This document shows positions 3,238 through 47,985 of a DNA stretch of 48,257 nt, one piece after another. Each line of letters opens with the position of its first letter. The first letter of the stretch is position 1. The position numbers and the translations under genes were made by a program. The notes under the pieces are model-generated. The model saw nothing but the letters and a program-made list of their open reading frames with translations. It was not told the origin of the DNA and searched no databases. Origin of the DNA: Minisyncoccota bacterium (lineage in GTDB: Bacteria > Patescibacteriota > Minisyncoccia > Phycocordibacterales > UBA9973); NCBI GenBank assembly GCA_035438585.1, contig DAORIO010000002.1, forward strand, positions 1 to 48,257, read 5' to 3'.

Positions 3238-3396
3238 TTAAATTTCGGTGAAATAATTTTCCAATACTTTTTTGTTCTTAAGTGTTTCACCACTAAAACC
3301 CCCTTGGCGAACTGGTGGCGGCTCTGTTTTTTTGTTGGATGAATCTGGTAATTCTTTCTTCTTATTCTTTCGTTTTAAGAAATCAAATATTCTCAT
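3238..3396 (-). CDS. Possible 52-aa basic protein (MRIFDFLKRKNKKKELPDSS...)
   Basis: Hand-translated ORF starting 11 nt after the stop of the upstream minus-strand gene and ending just before the terminator. No homology recognised. Confidence 0.25.
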   Translation of the reverse strand: MRIFDFLKRKNKKKELPDSSNKKTEPPPVRQGGFSGETLKNKKVLENYFTEI

Positions 3397-31904: not shown

Positions 31905-31990
31905 AGAGCTATGTTTTAGAATTGTTAGGTTTAGAAAGAATTATTTAACAAGATGCTACTCCTCCTATATTTTAGTGTCAAATTTTCTTA

Positions 31991-32017
31991 GTTACTTTTT
32001 AACCGCCAAAAAGTAAC
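31991..32017. repeat. Perfect 10-bp inverted repeat with 7-nt loop
   Basis: GTTACTTTTT (31991-32000), loop AACCGCC, AAAAAGTAAC (32008-32017). The left arm and its flank (CTTAGTTACTTTTT) resemble the CTTAGTT-CTTTT trailer motif of the repeat family. Confidence 0.6.
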
Positions 32018-32176
32018 CAAAAATGCTCTCGCCAGAATAAAATTTTATTATAAAAACGTAATTCGTCCTCGTAAAAAATTTAAACTCGCCCCGCTCAAAC
32101 AGAAAATTTTTAGTCTTCGGACTCATTGGTTTTCATATATAAAATTTTATAAGGCGAAGGCCAATAATAAATATAG

Positions 32177-32301
32177 TTTTGTGGCGCGGAATATTACATT
32201 TCCGCATACTGCAAAAGCTTTGCGGTTTTTATTTTGTGGCGTCGCAGACTGTCTGTGACATCCCACAAAAATATAGTCGCCTCGCTCCTTATTTTTTGTG
32301 G
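32177..32301 (+). repeat. Three direct TTTTGTGG(C/G) core repeats plus one inverted copy and a 39-nt imperfect palindrome
   Basis: TTTTGTGG occurs at 32177-32184, 32232-32239 and 32294-32301, with CCACAAAA at 32263-32270. The palindrome 32232-32270 has an outer 8-bp stem and an inner 7-bp stem. Confidence 0.7.
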
Positions 32302-32393
32302 GCCATATGGGTTCAGTATCAGAGTTGTGAGACCACGTAAGGGTATTTAGCAAAGTTTCAGAAGTTAATTTGAGGTATGCGGGTCGGGGTGCC
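32293..32393 (+). repeat. Repeat-family copy A (~100 nt)
   Basis: By hand alignment, roughly three-quarters identical to copy B over GTT.AGTA...GTGAGAC...CGTAAGG.TAT.TTAGC...TTTCA..AGTT.A.TTGAGGTATG.GGGTCGGGGT. It ends 2 nt before the stop of the nucleotidyltransferase gene. Confidence 0.7.
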
Positions 32394-32395
32394 TA

Positions 32396-33202
32396 CTACT
32401 TTACTTCAAAGTATTTAGGAATTTCAGAAAGCAACCATTGCCCTAGATGGTCCATAACCATTTTTATTTCCTTTTTATCAGATGTTGGGTTAAGTGCGAG
32501 GTTAAGTGCTTCACGCATTTCCAACTCTTTTTCAGGGTAGTACTTAGCGAATGTTTCGTAGCATCGATACAAATCACGAGTATATTTTTGCTCGCGTTCC
32601 ATAGTAAGTTCAAATCCAACGCGGAGCAGTCCTTTCATTAACCAAACACATCCTTTCTTTATTTCCTCATCAGATTCATCTTCTTTCGATAAAAACTTTT
32701 CAAACCATGAAAAACGATTATGGAAGCCGGCAGCATGTATAGACATTTCTTTTCCGGGTTTCAATTTCGGAATCTCAATCGGTTCACCATACACACAGAC
32801 TGATTGATTAAGGATAATGTAATCATCTGCGATATCTGAGAGAGGAAAAGCTCCCATTTCAATCTCTTCAACAAAATCATATTTCTCTTCGAGATGCTTT
32901 CGCATTTCTCGGTTAGTATTGTTCTCTTTCAGATATTCTGGTGTTTTATCGACATACGCAAATGTATCAATATCCGATACGCCTTTCACGGCTTCTCCTT
33001 TTGCAACTGATCCACGAATATAGACCTGCCTTAAATGTTCGCCATACGCTTTCTTGTATACCGCAACAATGTCTTCAATGAGTGGTTTCCATTCTTCTTG
33101 AATTTTCTCCAGAGATGTAGGGTTTACCACATGTCCCTCTGCATCAAGTTCAAAATATGACCCTATTGGTTTTATCTCAATTTTTGAAGCTGATTTTTCC
33201 AT
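32396..33202 (-). CDS. Pol-beta-superfamily nucleotidyltransferase, ANT(3'')/AadA-like architecture
   Basis: VYIRGSVAKGEAVKGVSDIDTFAYV matches GS....G......SD(I/L)D. The 268-aa length with a helical C-terminal domain resembles aminoglycoside adenylyltransferases. The substrate is not inferable. Confidence 0.75.
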   Translation of the reverse strand: MEKSASKIEIKPIGSYFELDAEGHVVNPTSLEKIQEEWKPLIEDIVAVYKKAYGEHLRQVYIRGSVAKGEAVKGVSDIDTFAYVDKTPEYLKENNTNREMRKHLEEKYDFVEEIEMGAFPLSDIADDYIILNQSVCVYGEPIEIPKLKPGKEMSIHAAGFHNRFSWFEKFLSKEDESDEEIKKGCVWLMKGLLRVGFELTMEREQKYTRDLYRCYETFAKYYPEKELEMREALNLALNPTSDKKEIKMVMDHLGQWLLSEIPKYFEVK

Positions 33203-33243
33203 TGCGTTAATTATGTCTTAAGCGAAGACATTTGTATAGCCAA

Positions 33244-33297
33244 GGTACCCGAGTCGCCCTATGTACCTAAGCATGTGGGGCATGCCGATACTAAGTT
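33244..33297 (-). repeat. Repeat-family copy D (partial, inverted)
   Basis: The reverse complement reads ACTTAGTATCGGCATGCCCCACATGCTTAGGTACATAGGGCGACTCGGGTACC. It aligns with the left and middle part of copy B (ACTTAGT..GGCAT..TTAGGTAC.TAGGG.G). Confidence 0.5.
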
Positions 33298-33303
33298 TTT
33301 AGT

Positions 33304-33328
33304 GTGGAGATGGGCGGAATTTCGATCC
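33304..33328 (-). other. Degenerate direct copy of the tmRNA 3' end
   Basis: GTGGAGATGGGCGGAATTTCGATCC compared with the genuine GTGGAGATGGCGAGATTCGAACTC at 33481-33504 (first 10 nt identical). Confidence 0.55.
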
Positions 33329-33393
33329 TTACAGGATCAGTACACCTTTTCAATTTTCTCAGAGCAAAGCTCTTCGTAAATAATGAAAAGCTT

Positions 33394-33439
33394 TTCGAAT
33401 CTCGCACGCAAGCAAAGCAGTTTACTTGCTCATCTCCAC
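33394..33439 (+). other. Inverted, interrupted copy of the tmRNA/tRNA T-loop and acceptor 3' end
   Basis: TTCGAATCTCGC (33394-33405) and CATCTCCAC (33431-33439) on the plus strand are separated by a 25-nt insert. The uninterrupted original on the minus strand is TTCGAATCTCGCCATCTCCAC. Confidence 0.45.
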
Positions 33440-33444
33440 TGAAA

Positions 33445-33468
33445 AACAAAAAGCGCCCAAGGGCGCTA
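33445..33468 (-). terminator. Terminator after tmRNA
   Basis: AGCGCCC / GGGCGCT palindrome (33452-33467), followed on the minus strand by a T-run. Confidence 0.7.
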
Positions 33469-33480
33469 ATGTTTTTAAAA

Positions 33481-33864
33481 GTGGAGATGGCGAGATTCGA
33501 ACTCGCGTGCAAAAGTATGTTCAAATTGATCTTCGTGTGTAGTTTGCTCTGGTGTTTCGCGTATTGATAAAGGGCAAACAAAAATCTTTACGCTATCTTC
33601 TAAGTTTTCTTTTAGAAAGTCGAAGAAGTCTTTCTAAAATAAAGATTGACTGTATAAGACCCTAATCCCTGACATCAATCAGATCAAAGTAGGATCCGAG
33701 ACTCTTAAGCGAGTGCTCGTGCAAAGGCCACGTTTTGAAACGGGCTCTTTACATAACCAAATGTTTTTCCATTTGGAGTTGCAACATGTGTTAACGAGCG
33801 ACATTTGCATGCTCGACACGCACAATTTGAAGCGATATCTCTTGTCGATGCCATAAACATCCCC
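33481..33864 (-). ncRNA. ssrA: tmRNA (SsrA)
   Basis: On the minus strand, the 5' end is GGGGAUGUUUAUGGCAUCGACAAGAG and the 3' end is GCGAGUUCGAAUCUCGCCAUCUCCAC. The acceptor pairs GGGGAUG/CAUCUCC with G3:U70. There is an internal tag ORF, and the gene lies immediately downstream of smpB. Confidence 0.9.
33705..33782 (-). other. Predicted tmRNA tag reading frame (ATPNGKTFGYVKSPFQNVAFARALA*)
   Basis: Hand translation from resume codon GCA (33782-33780) to TAA (33707-33705). The Ala-rich hydrophobic C-terminus ...ARALA is typical of degradation tags. The choice of resume codon is an inference. Confidence 0.55.
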
Positions 33865-33879
33865 AATTGAATCGTCTTA

Positions 33880-34323
33880 TTAATTTTTCAAAGTCCTACG
33901 AAGTTCTCTTTCAGTATCTCTTTTTTTGATACTTTCTCTTTTATCGTACTTCTTTTTTCCACGAACCAAACCGATTTCACATTTAATCCGCCTTCCCACA
34001 CCATACAATTTAAGTGGTACAAGTGTCAATCTGTCAGACTTATGCTTTCTCTCAAATTCTTCCATTTCTTTTTTAGTAACCAAAAGCTTTCTCATACGCT
34101 CTGCGTCGTAATCTTTTGGTGTATTGCCACTTTGATATGGACTAACATTTGACCCTACCAAGAATAACTCTCCGCCAAGAACTTTTACATAACTTCCCGC
34201 CAGCCTTGCACCACCTTGTCTAACGGATTTAACTTCAAAGCCAAAAAGCTCGATTCCAGTTTCAACTGTATCGATTATTTCATAATCAAATCTCGCTTTT
34301 CGATTTTCAGCAAAAACTGCCAT
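33880..34323 (-). CDS. smpB: SsrA-binding protein SmpB
   Basis: NRKARFDYEI.......GIEL.G.EVKS.R........Y and LLV.K.E motifs. Confidence 0.95.
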   Translation of the reverse strand: MAVFAENRKARFDYEIIDTVETGIELFGFEVKSVRQGGARLAGSYVKVLGGELFLVGSNVSPYQSGNTPKDYDAERMRKLLVTKKEMEEFERKHKSDRLTLVPLKLYGVGRRIKCEIGLVRGKKKYDKRESIKKRDTERELRRTLKN

Positions 34324-34379
34324 AAGAGAAGTTTATCATTAATTTTTATTTATGTTAGTATTTGGAAAACTTCCACAAA

Positions 34380-37816: not shown

Positions 37817-37890
37817 CCGCCCTTAGCTCAGTTGGTTAGAGCACAGAGCTTATACCTCTGGGGTCCATGGTTCGAATCCATGAGGGCGGA
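37817..37890 (+). tRNA. tRNA-Ile, anticodon UAU
   Basis: Hand fold: acceptor CCGCCCU/AGGGCGG, D arm GCUC-AGUUGGUUA-GAGC, anticodon arm CAGAG-CUUAUAC-CUCUG, variable GGGUC, T arm CAUGG-UUCGAAU-CCAUG, discriminator A. CCA is not encoded. Confidence 0.85.
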
Positions 37891-37897
37891 CAATCAG

Positions 37898-45022: not shown

Positions 45023-45034
45023 TTTTTAAAATAC

Positions 45035-45062
45035 AAAAAGCCACACAATGTGTGGCTTTTTG
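45035..45062 (+). terminator. Terminator
   Basis: GCCACAC (45040-45046) / GTGTGGC (45050-45056), A-run before and T-run after. Confidence 0.85.
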
Positions 45063-45074
45063 TATTTTAGGATT

Positions 45075-45089: not shown

Positions 45090-45512
45090 ATGAAAACAAG
45101 AAATATTTTTAATATTCTAAGGGTGGCAATGTCTTTTATTTTTTTATGGGCATTCGTTGATAAGTTATTCGGTTTTGGACTTGCGACAAAGCCTGAGAAT
45201 GCATGGATAAATGGCGGATCTCCAACAACCGGTTTTTTGGCAAATGCTGTTCATGGGCCATTTACTACTATTTTTAATAGTCTTTCTGGGATTGCGCTTA
45301 TTGATTGGATGTTTATGTTGGGACTATTATTTATAGGGCTTACATTTTTATTCAACAAATATGTAAAGTATGGTGCGATTGCTGGAATGATTATGATGGC
45401 GCTAATGTATTTGGCACTTTTGTTTCCAGAGAATAATCCATTGATTGATGAACATATAATTTATTTATTAGTCTTTGCTTTGTTTTTCTCAAGAGATACA
45501 GCAGGGAATTAG
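45090..45512 (+). CDS. DoxX-like small membrane protein
   Basis: RVAMSFIFLWAFVDKLFGFG...W..G.SPT.GFL plus four hydrophobic helices. Tentative family call. Confidence 0.55.
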   Translation: MKTRNIFNILRVAMSFIFLWAFVDKLFGFGLATKPENAWINGGSPTTGFLANAVHGPFTTIFNSLSGIALIDWMFMLGLLFIGLTFLFNKYVKYGAIAGMIMMALMYLALLFPENNPLIDEHIIYLLVFALFFSRDTAGN

Positions 45513-45522
45513 ATGGTATTTT

Positions 45523-45625
45523 ATTTGGAGGGCTACTCGCGTTAAGTACCCCTTAAGTAAGATCGTGTAAGGGTATTTTAGTATCTTTTGACTGGGTCAA
45601 TTTAGGTACTCAGGTCGGAGTCTCA
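45523..45625 (+). repeat. Repeat-family copy C (~100 nt, most diverged)
   Basis: TTTGGAGGGCTACTCGCGTTAAGTACCCCTTAAGTAAGATCGTGTAAGGGTATTTTAGTATCTTTTGACTGGGTCAATTTAGGTACTCAGGTCGGAGTC is colinear with copies A and B. It lies between the DoxX-like gene stop and the SEC-C gene start. Confidence 0.6.
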
Positions 45626-45666
45626 ATAGGCTAGCGACCATAACCTCACAGTAGTAAGATTGAGGC

Positions 45667-47073
45667 ATGGGTAAGGGAAATTTATTAAACAAACCGTGTG
45701 ACTGTGGGTCTGGCAAAAAATACAAGAAATGTTGCATGAATACTCCAAAAGAAAAAGAAATTTTAACTGGAGCAAATGCGGAGGCACTGGTTGAATTTTT
45801 GAGCTCGAAAACCTTTTTAAAACCATGGGTGTTCCGTAGTCCGAAATATACCTCAGACAATAAGGAGTTTTGCGATGTCGCAATATTATTCAGAGGCACG
45901 CTTATATTAATTGAAGTTACTGGGTCCAAGTTTGACCCAAGCAATCCTCAAAGATATTTAAGAAAAGTTAAAAAGAAACATGGGCAGTTAAATATTGCTC
46001 ACAGAATAGTCACTAATAAATCTAAAGAAGTTCAATTTGTGAATGATTATTTTGATTTTAAAACTACATTTGGAGAGATCGATACCGTCCATAAAATATT
46101 CTTATCTACAGGTGATGGTGAGATGAAAATAGCTGAAAATCCAGGCAAGACAAACGGAATTACATTTGAAGATTTAGGAAGGTATTGTGGTTTTTATAAC
46201 GATGAAGACGGAATACACTCTTTCACTTTGTCTGAACTATCTTATGCTAGCGAACATATAAATACACTGAAAGACTTCGATTGGTATTTACAGTTTGAAA
46301 AAAAGTTCTTAACTAATGACTTTGGTGATTTTAGTGGAAAAGTTTTACCTGTTGTAGATTCAGAAAGAGAAGATTTAATTGCTGTATACCTCCTCACATT
46401 CTCTCAGGATGAGGAATTAAATATAAGTGGAGTCGTAAATTTGTCGAAAATATTTGGCGATAATGATTTGAGTGAATCGACAATGATTATGTACTCCGCA
46501 ACTGGTACACATAAAAATCTTGAAAGTGACGACTACTACAGAGAGATAATTTCTGAGAGAAAGATAAGTTATTTTTGGGATAGCTTGGTAACTGATATGG
46601 CTGCTCAGTGCCAAACGATGTTGAGAGTGAATTCAAATGGTACTGAAAATGTTGTAAACAGAATGGAAGAAATGATAAAAGTTTTAGAAGTTCTCAGTCA
46701 CACATCACGCTTTGAGAGAGTGAAATACTCTGAGGGTATTATAGGGTCACAAAATCAAGGCAGGGATGGAAAGATTTTTTATAGAAACATTTTTTCTTTG
46801 GCAAAAGATTCAGATACTCTCTTTTCATATTTAAGACGCCAGTATCAGGTCATTCCATCAGATAATGAGAAAGTAAGTACCGCTATTAGGCATGCTAGAA
46901 CGGTGTGGTGTCGAGTCAATTATTCGGACAGAATGTCAGCTCATAAGGATCGAATCAAAAGAGCTTGCCTTATAACGCACCATATTTATGGAGAAAATTC
47001 AGTTTTTACCTTTTCTTTAGCAGACCCAATTGAAGTCACCCGACATGAGTGTGACCCATTTCTCAATTTTTAG
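45667..47073 (+). CDS. SEC-C metal-binding motif protein, otherwise uncharacterised (468 aa)
   Basis: The N-terminal CDCGSGKKYKKCC is the SecA-C-terminal-type zinc motif. A weak D...E....K segment (CDVAILFRGTLILIEVTGSK) hints at a NERD/PD-(D/E)xK-like core. TAAGAT lies 6 nt before the ATG. Confidence 0.75.
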   Translation: MGKGNLLNKPCDCGSGKKYKKCCMNTPKEKEILTGANAEALVEFLSSKTFLKPWVFRSPKYTSDNKEFCDVAILFRGTLILIEVTGSKFDPSNPQRYLRKVKKKHGQLNIAHRIVTNKSKEVQFVNDYFDFKTTFGEIDTVHKIFLSTGDGEMKIAENPGKTNGITFEDLGRYCGFYNDEDGIHSFTLSELSYASEHINTLKDFDWYLQFEKKFLTNDFGDFSGKVLPVVDSEREDLIAVYLLTFSQDEELNISGVVNLSKIFGDNDLSESTMIMYSATGTHKNLESDDYYREIISERKISYFWDSLVTDMAAQCQTMLRVNSNGTENVVNRMEEMIKVLEVLSHTSRFERVKYSEGIIGSQNQGRDGKIFYRNIFSLAKDSDTLFSYLRRQYQVIPSDNEKVSTAIRHARTVWCRVNYSDRMSAHKDRIKRACLITHHIYGENSVFTFSLADPIEVTRHECDPFLNF

Positions 47074-47097
47074 TTAGAATACATATATGCTTCCAAA

Positions 47098-47125
47098 TCA
47101 AAAAGCACGTTAAACGTGCTTTTTG
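47098..47125. terminator. Terminator (bidirectional-looking)
   Basis: AGCACGT (47104-47110) / ACGTGCT (47114-47120) between an A-run and a T-run. Confidence 0.8.
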
Positions 47126-47132
47126 ATTTCTA

Positions 47133-47265
47133 AGGGAGTCGGGTCACTGCGATACTTAGTTCTTTTGGCGGGCATCGTGGGTTAGGTACTAGGGTGGTGA
47201 GACACCGTAAGGATATTTTAGCACCATTTCACGAGTTGAATTGAGGTATGTGGGTCGGGGTCGCT
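47133..47265 (+). repeat. Repeat-family copy B (longest, with tRNA-end-like core and trailer)
   Basis: GGAGTCGGGTCACTGCGATACTTAGTTCTTTTGGCGGGCATCGTGGGTTAGGTACTAGGGTGGTGAGACACCGTAAGGATATTTTAGCACCATTTCACGAGTTGAATTGAGGTATGTGGGTCGGGGTCGC. GTCGGG(G)TC occurs at both ends. The element ends 11 nt before the stop of the DUF4440 gene. Confidence 0.7.
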
Positions 47266-47276
47266 CTTTTGCAAAT

Positions 47277-47639
47277 TTAGCCAATCCGAGTCGCTTGATG
47301 GAAAAACATTTGCCATCCACTAGCGGTCTTTCTCCAATGCGAACTTCGTAGCGAAATAACCTTATCTTTACCATCTGTAGCCCTTTCCGTTTTAAATGTT
47401 GCAACGGCTATATTTTCAGAAGGGGTGTCGACATTGAAATCGCTCACCGAATATTCAACCTTTTCAAGGGTATTCGGAAGTCTTTCGAGAATATCCGCCT
47501 TTGTGTACTTATTCCCCGATGTTCCGAACTCGATGAAATCGTCAGCGAGCAACCCATTAAGAGCCTCTTTCGAAGATCTTACTTCGGGTTTCAGAAGCGA
47601 TAGCTCTAGATCATAAATTGTTTTGGTTATTTCGTTCAT
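47277..47639 (-). CDS. DUF4440/NTF2-like (SnoaL-like fold) protein
   Basis: LLADDFIEFGTSGNKYTKADIL ... SSHWRKTASGWQMFFHQAT is typical of DUF4440 proteins. Confidence 0.8.
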   Translation of the reverse strand: MNEITKTIYDLELSLLKPEVRSSKEALNGLLADDFIEFGTSGNKYTKADILERLPNTLEKVEYSVSDFNVDTPSENIAVATFKTERATDGKDKVISLRSSHWRKTASGWQMFFHQATRIG

Positions 47640-47682
47640 AAGTATTTTTAGGCACTCGGGTTATATATCTACTAAGTTTTCT

Positions 47683-47772
47683 TGGCGGAGACGGCGAGAT
47701 TCGAACTCGCGGGGCTTGTAACAGCCCGCCTCCTTAGCAAGGAGGTACCTTAAACCGCTCAGACACGTCTCC
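47683..47772 (-). tRNA. tRNA-Ser, anticodon GCU (type II, CCA encoded)
   Basis: On the minus strand: GGAGACG ... CCUCC-UUGCUAA-GGAGG, long variable arm, GCGAG-UUCGAAU-CUCGC, CGUCUCC-G-CCA. Confidence 0.9.
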
Positions 47773-47854: not shown

Positions 47855-47942
47855 AGGAGAATTGGGTGAGTGGTTTAAACCAGCGGTTTACTAAACCGCC
47901 GACGGGTAAAACTGTCCGTGAGTTCAAATCTCACATTCTCCG
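47855..47942 (+). tRNA. Type II (Ser-like, discriminator G) tRNA; hand-folded anticodon loop UUACUAA gives ACU
   Basis: Acceptor GGAGAAU/AUUCUCC, anticodon arm GCGGU-UUACUAA-ACCGC, variable arm GACGG-GUAAAA-CUGUC, T arm GUGAG-UUCAAAU-CUCAC. The D region is one nt longer than the E. coli Ser tRNAs I compared, so the isotype needs software confirmation. Confidence 0.7.
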
Positions 47943-47985
47943 CAGTAAGAATTTAGTATCGGTAGACTCATCTGCCTAAAATATC

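Follow-up and report, generated by a model that had tools for sequence, protein, structure and literature searches.

We found that a ~100-nt repeat, here called E, is probably a DNA-level site-specific recombination module, namely the element-side P arm of the attachment site (attP/attR-type) of an undescribed family of integrative elements in the Candidate Phyla Radiation (CPR) that targets the 3' ends of tRNA-Ser and transfer-messenger RNA (tmRNA) genes. The repeat was noticed in a 48,257-nt stretch of DNA from a Minisyncoccota bacterium (contig DAORIO010000002.1, positions 1 to 48,257; hereafter the window), and throughout the text E denotes the repeat as it reads on the plus strand of the window, while E' denotes its reverse complement, read along the strand of the neighboring tRNA (the F strand). 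Members of the family extend from prophages down to single-gene cassettes that lack an integrase, and the window itself holds three of the latter, carrying NTP-transferase, DUF4440 and SEC-C genes, as well as the start of a fourth behind tRNA-Ser(act) (Table 1). An attP-arm-like recombination module was among the options listed in the initial annotation of the sequence, and it is supported by a rule of position and orientation relative to the tRNA, a core shared by both junctions, the mimicry of the tRNA 3' end by E', junction polymorphisms exact at the core, and an association with prophages and a serine integrase. While tRNA-linked integration and tandem accretion are classical, the conserved 100-nt module with its tRNA-end mimic, its breadth across the CPR, and the integron-like stacking of tiny cassettes are new; full-text searches of the literature returned no prior description of the element.

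The three copies in the window, A, B and C, are colinear on the plus strand with pairwise identities of 59-70%. They had been described at the outset as one family in a single orientation, and nhmmer confirmed this, recovering all three with E-values of 2.7e-32 to 9.8e-31 for a profile of the three copies and of 3.6e-20 to 2.6e-25 for a 59-sequence profile; the three-copy profile returned no further copies in the window. The gene boundaries that each copy was said to touch also proved correct when checked. The limits of the family had been drawn too widely, however: the proposed leftward extension of B to position 47133 does cover conserved sequence (47133-47162), but this is a separate motif, U, and not E, and the supposed partial inverted copy D (33244-33297), which neither E profile detected, is the U motif beside a duplicate of the tmRNA end and has only a ~12-nt sub-motif (GGTAC..GGGTC) in common with E. 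The G+C content of A, B and C is 42-49%, compared to 35% for the whole window. Across copies, the intergenic length of E is conserved with few indels, and near-invariant blocks (GCGGGC; GGGTTAAGTAC; GTAAGGGTATTYTAGCA; GAGGTAYnnGGGTCGGGG) are separated by two variable stretches. The most conserved block, TGCTARAATACCCTTAC on the tRNA-direction strand, varies essentially only at position 3 of its hexamer (A, G, T or C) across 55-59 copies. Since it reads like an extended -10 element, it may be an outward-facing promoter, or else a protein-binding site; in 50 of 73 cases, the gene on the right-hand side of E' has the same orientation as E', and a scan for consensus promoters was uninformative. 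Two E copies (L044 948-1088 and L024 1179-1320; loci are given by L numbers) carry the same ~24-nt insertion (ATTTATGGTGAGCTTGTCGAACC) within this block, between TATTTT and AGCA.

Using pattern scans of two public collections, we obtained 10 loci from GTDB species genomes (Saccharibacteria, Paceibacterota, Nomurabacteria and other Patescibacteria metagenome-assembled genomes) and 55 from JGI metagenome contigs. A profile search across these 65 loci yielded 83 E matches with an E-value below 1e-6, representing 72 unique cores and all intergenic, and many loci contained 2-3 copies in the same orientation, spaced 0.5-1.7 kb apart. The profile scan that the initial annotation had proposed thus revealed a family that is widespread in Patescibacteria, far beyond chance. 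A pattern scan of IMG/VR gave 0 matches to the E pattern, and blastn against INPHARED gave no match.

The position of E relative to tRNA genes followed a strict rule. ARAGORN found a tRNA-Ser in ~25 of 57 loci, and at every locus with such a nearby tRNA all E copies lie downstream of the tRNA 3' end and antisense to the tRNA, mostly 0.4-2 kb away, with the copies of multi-copy loci arranged in series behind it. Read in the tRNA direction, the common map is tRNA-Ser, cargo gene(s), E', and then conserved host genes (ComF-PilM-PilO, RecG). Such a map could also arise if E were a host feature downstream of tRNA-Ser (a small RNA gene, or a boundary or landing-pad element) and mobile DNA inserted between the tRNA and E. 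The outer side of E' indeed always lies against conserved host genes, the invariant blocks are kept across distant CPR lineages, E is missing from most related phage contigs, and at locus L005 the distance from tRNA to E' is only 594 nt with no open reading frame (ORF) in between. We nevertheless consider a host feature improbable, because arrays of 2-3 co-oriented copies with one gene between each would need tandem host copies, because the composite junctions of E' with U described below repeat the junction of tRNA with U, and because the SEC-C cassette has taken its U and a fragment of its E' along to another tRNA-Ser locus while close relatives lack both E(A) and its cargo.

The partner motif U, with the sequence (GG)TACTCGGGTCAYTCCGATACTTAGTTCTCTTG, precedes approximately one-third of the E copies on the plus strand or, equivalently, comes after one-third of the E' copies, whose remainder lies directly against host flank. 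In the tRNA direction, U also directly follows the tRNA-Ser 3' end in ~15 of 25 loci (...CTCCGCCA/AGAGAACTAAGTATCGGAGTGACCCGAGTACC; here and below, a slash marks the junction). The window holds four copies of U, located behind tRNA-Ser(gct), tRNA-Ser(act), E'(B), and the diverged tmRNA 3'-end duplicate (~33300). Over its last 26 nt (GGGTACTTAACCCACGTAGCCCGCCA), E' resembles tRNA-Ser from the T-arm through the acceptor strand and discriminator to the CCA (GGGTTCGAATCCCACCGTCTCCGCCA), and hence tRNA and E' both end in CCGCC(A), a short identity core that terminates tRNA-Ser at the left junction and E' at the right junction; at copy B, the 3' end of E' on the F strand reads ...CCTAACCCACGATGCCCGCCA. 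As judged from these sequences, this is the pattern that would be expected of attL (tRNA followed by U), attR (E' followed by host flank), and attP-like tandem junctions (E' followed by U). On this reading, E'(B) with its U is a candidate attP-like composite junction between two tandem cassettes, while the junction of E'(C) appears attR-like because a non-U flank comes next. Of 21 nt at their 3' ends, the tmRNA and tRNA-Ser(gct) differ at 2. A diverged duplicate of the tmRNA 3' end (GGATCGAAATTCCGCCCATCTCCA) lies at ~33301-33335, ~150 nt downstream of the authentic end and terminator of the tmRNA, and bears the U junction.

A direct sub-motif of ~12 nt, GACCCGAGTACC, is repeated where E' begins, within the end that mimics the tRNA, and in U, at positions -90, -15 and +20 relative to the junction, where we counted 107 occurrences against ~2 expected. 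These fixed places explain both the direct co-variation within E and the partial resemblance of the former copy D. In L052 (~3330-3365), and likewise somewhere in the flank upstream of the E copy at L029 3288-3397, U is split by a G+C-rich insertion of ~32 nt (CATCTTCGCCCAAGGTTTCGCAGGGACGCGGT) between GTATC and CGGAGTGACCCGAG.

Table 1. Features of the window that belong to the cassettes, their junctions and their predicted target genes (slashes mark junctions; TGCTAAAATATCCTTAC and GACCCACATACC are given on the F strand).
Feature	Coordinates	Strand	Assignment	Evidence and remarks
E'(A)	32292..32394	-	Putative right-end module of the nucleotidyltransferase cassette behind the tmRNA gene	nhmmer E-value 3.6e-20; absent from L169-L172
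NTP_transf_2 nucleotidyltransferase	32396..33202	-	Cargo of the tmRNA-linked cassette	Pfam; PADLOC, weak similarity to defence cyclase/PDC-S09 models
U after duplicated tmRNA 3' end	33262..33310	-	attL-like junction ...CCCATCTCCA/CACTAAAAACTTAGTATCGGCATG	U profile E-value 2.3e-11; formerly "copy D"; homology of relatives ends at 33307
tmRNA gene	33479..33864	-		Rfam, 121.7 bits; 3' end GTTCGAATCTCGCCATCTCCA
E'(C)	45522..45626	-	Putative right-end module of the SEC-C cassette	nhmmer E-value 2.8e-22
SEC-C-motif protein, 468 aa	45667..47073	+	Cargo of cassette 2	Pfam; terminator 47094-47130; same cassette behind tRNA-Ser(tga) in L173/L174
U after E'(B)	47125..47173	-	CCGCCAAAAGAACTAAGTATCGCAGTGACCCGACTCCC	U profile E-value 7e-13
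E'(B)	47161..47264	-	Putative right-end (P-arm) module of the DUF4440 cassette	nhmmer E-value 2.6e-25; junction comparison with L173
Most conserved block of E'(B)	47207..47223	-	TGCTAAAATATCCTTAC; resembles an extended -10 (TGnTAnAAT)	Alignments
Sub-motif copy near E'(B) start	47245..47256	-	GACCCACATACC; consensus GACCCGAGTACC	Recurs at 47176-47189 (tRNA-mimic end) and 47134-47145 (U)
DUF4440/SnoaL-like protein	47277..47639	-	Cargo of cassette 1, behind tRNA-Ser(gct)	Pfam
U after tRNA-Ser(gct)	47642..47692	-	attL-like ...GTCTCCGCCA/AGAAAACTTAGTA...ACCCGAGTGCC	U profile E-value 1.4e-11; alternative junctions of L078-L081 break at 47688
tRNA-Ser(gct)	47683..47772	-	Predicted integration target, attB-derived part of attL	ARAGORN and Rfam
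tRNA-Ser(act)	47856..47943	+	Predicted second integration target	ARAGORN and Rfam
U after tRNA-Ser(act)	47937..47985	+	Starts a further cassette that runs off the window	U profile E-value 5.1e-10

Comparison with related loci revealed polymorphisms at these junctions. L173 and L174 contain a segment with a homologue of the 468-aa SEC-C protein that is 89% identical to window positions 45601-47164. In L173, the U and terminator of this cassette are joined to tRNA-Ser(tga) (...CTCTCCGC/AGTAAAAACAAAGTATCGG), whereas their partner in the window is E'(B) (...GATGCCCGC/CAAAAGAACTAAGTATCG), with the break between the two arrangements directly after CCGC. On the other side of the cassette in L173, only the first ~27 nt of E' are kept and are fused at the 12-nt motif to another gene, behind which come a divergent E', a U and a gene for an AbiJ-like protein. 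A second set of contigs from four samples (L078-L081) shares 100% identity with the window over SEC-C, DUF4440 and U as far as base 47688, past which they carry two other sequences instead of the tRNA, placing the break at CCGCCA. Finally, the close relatives L169-L172 (92-98.7% identity) lack window positions 31986-33306, which comprise U, the nucleotidyltransferase gene and E(A), and their homology stops at 33307, within 2 nt of the junction between the tmRNA end and U. In the same loci, the whole SmpB-tmRNA block (window 33307-34346) has the opposite orientation to that in the window and lies between AlgH and FtsH, and hence the right-hand boundary of the tmRNA cassette cannot be placed exactly. 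Polymorphism at the repeat boundary, which the initial annotation had suggested looking for as presence or absence of the flanked genes, was thus seen exactly at the core as an alternative junction partner in L173 and in L078-L081, and as absence of the cassette on the left side of L169-L172, but not on the right side of the latter. In independent assemblies of the nucleotidyltransferase cassette (L082-L086, contigs of 963-1289 nt), the sequence ends within E(A) (32383-32389) or around U (33349-33403), consistent with assembly breaks caused by repeats or heterogeneity at the cassette ends.

We propose that an integrated element would consist, in the tRNA direction, of a tRNA-Ser ending in CCGCCA, U as the P' arm, the cargo, and E' as the P arm, again ending in CCGCCA before the host flank. 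Insertion would target tmRNA and the 3' ends of tRNA-Ser genes, whatever their anticodon, and repeated insertion at one tRNA would produce tandem arrays in which attP-like composite junctions of E' and U separate units of ~1 kb. Strand exchange may occur within or next to CCGCC(A), and the enzyme could be a large serine recombinase (LSR) of related phages, supplied in trans to the small cassettes. Accessory factors may bind to the repeated GACCCGAGTACC sub-motif and to the invariant TGCTARAATACCCTTAC block, or TGCTARAATACCCTTAC may instead serve as an outward promoter.

An LSR (with Resolvase, Recombinase and Zn_ribbon_recom domains) is found at three loci, in all of which its 3' end points toward the junction: in L011 it is convergent on and overlaps the tRNA-Ser, in L043 it lies just across the junction from E', and in L139, an IMG/VR prophage, it lies immediately inside E'. 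We collected TerL relatives in IMG/VR by an alignment-based scan (a scan with the single TerL protein found none), and most of the 79 contigs obtained have an LSR homologue that is 40-55% identical to the L139 protein, which itself is 25-28% identical to known phage serine integrases.

Several points weigh against E as an attachment-site arm. Neither the window nor any small cassette examined encodes a recombinase, according to Pfam and motif scans, and tyrosine recombinases (R..HxxR..Y) were absent both from 556 ORFs in a regular-expression scan of limited sensitivity and from the neighbors searched with Pfam. Only 4 of the 79 TerL-related IMG/VR contigs carry E, which would fit with att sequences that vary with the target. 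The dyad around the junction is weak (GTACTTAA ... TTAGTAT), its best center lying 3 nt left of the junction with 42% complementarity, and serine integrases do not account for a conserved arm of 100 nt that carries direct sub-motifs, an arrangement more characteristic of tyrosine integrases; the 70 nt of E' farthest from the junction, together with the direct sub-motifs, look like arm or accessory sites. The invariant blocks are conserved across phylum-level lineages, beyond typical phage att arms, and E may therefore have an additional function. Lastly, the right-hand difference between the tmRNA cassette and its relatives lies 62-306 nt beyond E'(A) and is confounded by the inversion, with sequence like the native flank of the relatives (CGCCACAAAATAA) found ~62 nt beyond E'(A).

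We also considered as an integrase the 446-aa Zn-ribbon protein g446, whose gene adjoins E, and rejected it: the protein has no Pfam or PHROG match, its AlphaFold2 model (mean predicted local distance difference test score, pLDDT, 85) matches only zinc ribbons in the PDB, and it is absent from many E-bearing prophages. The g446 family (~440 aa, Zn-ribbon-rich; L065 474-1814, with homologues in L009, L025, L034, L037, L042, L044, L062, L087 and L101) is represented in Parcubacteria and Paceibacterota by more than 261 homologues that share 50-95% identity. In every case the gene is convergent with the 3' side of E on the plus strand, and tandem 8-mers (AATGAGACAAATGAGACA, the halves of which co-vary; tandem AATGAGACA repeats) lie in between.

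In ~12 loci the cargo is a prophage, with genes for the large terminase TerL, the small terminase TerS, and a ParB-methyltransferase, all of them close beside E'. This neighborhood raises the question of whether E, or its distal 70 nt, is instead a phage cis-element beside attP, such as a cos/pac packaging site or the promoter or regulatory region of the ParB-methylase–TerS–TerL operon, which would survive in decayed prophage remnants only through its proximity to the junction. In the prophage loci, E on the plus strand lies directly upstream of the ParB-methyltransferase, TerS and TerL genes and is co-oriented with them, the tandem 8-mers (AATGAGACAAATGAGACA) come after it, the opposite strand of the invariant block reads like an extended -10, and serine integrases do not need a long arm. 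The conserved region, however, stops exactly at the junction core, the same sub-motif occurs across the junction in U, at the opposite end of the integrated element, and full-length E is kept in single-gene cassettes without phage genes, while most TerL relatives lack E. We hence regard a phage cis-element as quite unlikely.

Next to an attachment-site arm, a structured non-coding RNA (a small RNA or a cis-regulatory leader) appears very improbable. It would account for a G+C content of 42-49% in a 35% genome and for the conserved intergenic length with few indels, and one-sided G-C/G-U changes are compatible with GUACC/GGUAC pairing on the plus strand. The only recurrent helix, a local hairpin of 4-6 bp present in 51 of 55 copies, is equally explained as a copy of the tRNA T-arm dyad. 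RNAalifold on the 55 copies predicted 10 pairs at -5.5 kcal/mol, of which 1 showed a two-sided compensatory change, and the mean minimum free energy (MFE) was -25.3, compared to -24.9 for shuffled sequences, on the plus strand and -16.5 on the other strand. Folding of 3 and of 55 sequences with RNAalifold, averaged base-pair probabilities and mutual information all gave weak signals, and the top pairs in mutual information were direct: the strongest co-variation joins xxGGGTT near the 5' end with xxGGGTC near the 3' end, and not complementary segments. Rfam gave no match to E, either at gathering thresholds across the whole window or at E-values up to 10 within 45300-47500. Of the cassette-associated structured RNA put forward in the initial annotation, the cassette association is thus retained and the structured RNA is not, given the lack of an Rfam match, an MFE equal to that of shuffles, and compensatory change in 1 of 10 pairs. 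A riboswitch or leader was rejected for want of a consistent downstream gene, and a tRNA-like reading because ARAGORN and the Rfam tRNA model made no call and a 5' acceptor strand is missing. We also rejected a displaced tRNA or tmRNA 3' fragment inside E, to which the resemblance is confined to the terminal 26 nt, and a coding remnant, as both strands contain stops in several frames and a 1-nt indel is present in copy A.

Origins of E as a repeat derived from a miniature inverted-repeat transposable element (MITE) or insertion sequence, or as an integron attC site, are the least credible readings that we weighed. E is multicopy and intergenic and touches gene ends, its GTTAGGT and GTTAAGT sequences, pointed out early on, resemble the attC R' core, and arrays of ~1-kb single-gene units resemble integron cassettes. 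A MITE-like element, which had been offered as a further option, is unsupported because terminal inverted repeats are missing and the shared sub-motifs are direct; target duplications are likewise missing. The initial annotation had set E apart from attC sites, and this was borne out, as neither strand of E contains a long imperfect palindrome, and we found neither a transposase nor a tyrosine recombinase, of the IntI type or otherwise, nearby. Moreover, insertion is strictly site- and orientation-specific behind tRNA-Ser or tmRNA.

The small cassettes carry varied cargo. In the window, the SEC-C cassette sits behind the DUF4440 cassette in tandem, and elsewhere we found a reverse transcriptase (L038 2852-3892; PADLOC RT/DRT models, E-value 5.6e-50) and an AbiJ-like Abi_C protein (L173 6202-7320). 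Together with the nucleotidyltransferase, these predicted cargos suggest that the hotspot collects defence genes. Small GIY-YIG ORFs (79-126 aa) directly follow tRNA-Ser (...CTCCGCC/TTCGCCCGCCATAGC...), with G+C-rich hairpin repeats before them, in L052 (3961-4290), L058, L061, L064, L017, L024 and L027, and look like a second kind of mobile element at the same tRNA-Ser hotspot. Similar G+C-rich hairpins make up the alternative left junction in L078-L080. The tRNA-Ser beside tRNA-Ser(gct) in the window has the anticodon ACT (A34), which is unusual for bacteria and recurs in L005, L006, L008, L015, L041 and L058. A tRNA-Ile with anticodon TAT (window 37817-37891, plus strand) is conserved beside the RecG region in related genomes and is also present in L008, L052, L055 and L169. 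Between a 118-aa ORF and the DoxX-like gene, window positions 45025-45071 form a perfect bidirectional terminator with a 20-bp stem, of which the same 43 nt gave an inverted self-match in blast.

Accessory-gene gain is little understood in CPR/Patescibacteria, which have tiny genomes. As a tentative and rather unlikely extension of the attachment-site reading, we suggest a tRNA-Ser-anchored, integron-like gene-cassette system in the CPR, in which integrase-less units of ~1 kb, each equipped with a conserved 100-nt module that combines a mimic of the tRNA end, sites for accessory factors and an extended -10 promoter pointing outward, would be captured, stacked and exchanged in trans by recombinases of resident or infecting phages. 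If so, these ultra-small genomes would have a dedicated hotspot for accessory genes, and if the small cassettes are mobilized in trans, they would constitute a cassette-exchange platform distinct from integrons. E and U are searchable markers that delimit cassettes and prophages, which would allow for mapping of the CPR mobile gene pool and help to assign phages to CPR hosts, and the candidate attP/attB pairs with their serine integrases are potential genetic tools for organisms that lack any.

The E system shares features with several known systems. Lactobacillus phage mv4 integrates at tRNA-Ser with a tyrosine integrase (bioRxiv 10.1101/2023.11.06.565760). The E system resembles such elements of tRNA/tmRNA 3' ends in its target at the tRNA-Ser 3' end, its fixed orientation, an identity core at both junctions, and element-borne arms; it differs from mv4 in that an LSR is the only recombinase seen at its junctions, with no tyrosine integrase found, and in its ~100-nt arm, which has been kept across CPR lineages of phylum level, imitates the T-arm and acceptor of the tRNA at its end, and mostly sits on integrase-less single-gene units. 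In large serine integrase systems such as phiC31, A118 and Bxb1 (PMC3783163, PMC3556126), the canonical sites are 40-50 bp long and have no accessory arms. Like these systems, L011, L043 and L139 have the 3' end of an LSR gene at the junction, and an imperfect inverted repeat (GTACTTAA ... TTAGTAT) lies ~13-20 bp on either side of the E-system core; unlike them, the E system keeps ~100 nt conserved to one side and 35-75 nt to the other, with direct repeats and a weak dyad. Repeated arm-type sites that flank the core, as in lambda-type attP, are present as the GACCCGAGTACC-like motif on both sides, also in U after tRNAs, whereas the heterobivalent tyrosine integrase used by lambda-type attP was not found near E, either by Pfam or in the regular-expression scan of 556 ORFs with its limited sensitivity. 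The streptococcal elements ICESt1 and ICESt3 exhibit tandem accretion of islands and cis-mobilizable elements (CIMEs) at one att site. Similar to these CIMEs, E units form att-bounded arrays behind one tRNA, most of them without recombination genes and with composite attP-like junctions, but they are only ~0.5-1.7 kb long, usually contain one gene, and occur in many CPR lineages at every tRNA-Ser isoacceptor and at tmRNA. Integron arrays (attI/attC), finally, share with the E system the co-oriented single-gene cassettes of ~1 kb, a conserved site of ~100 nt between them, and the presence of the same cassette in different arrays, while the E system differs from them in having no imperfect palindrome and no IntI, in a mixed cargo orientation, and in being anchored at a tRNA gene rather than at attI.

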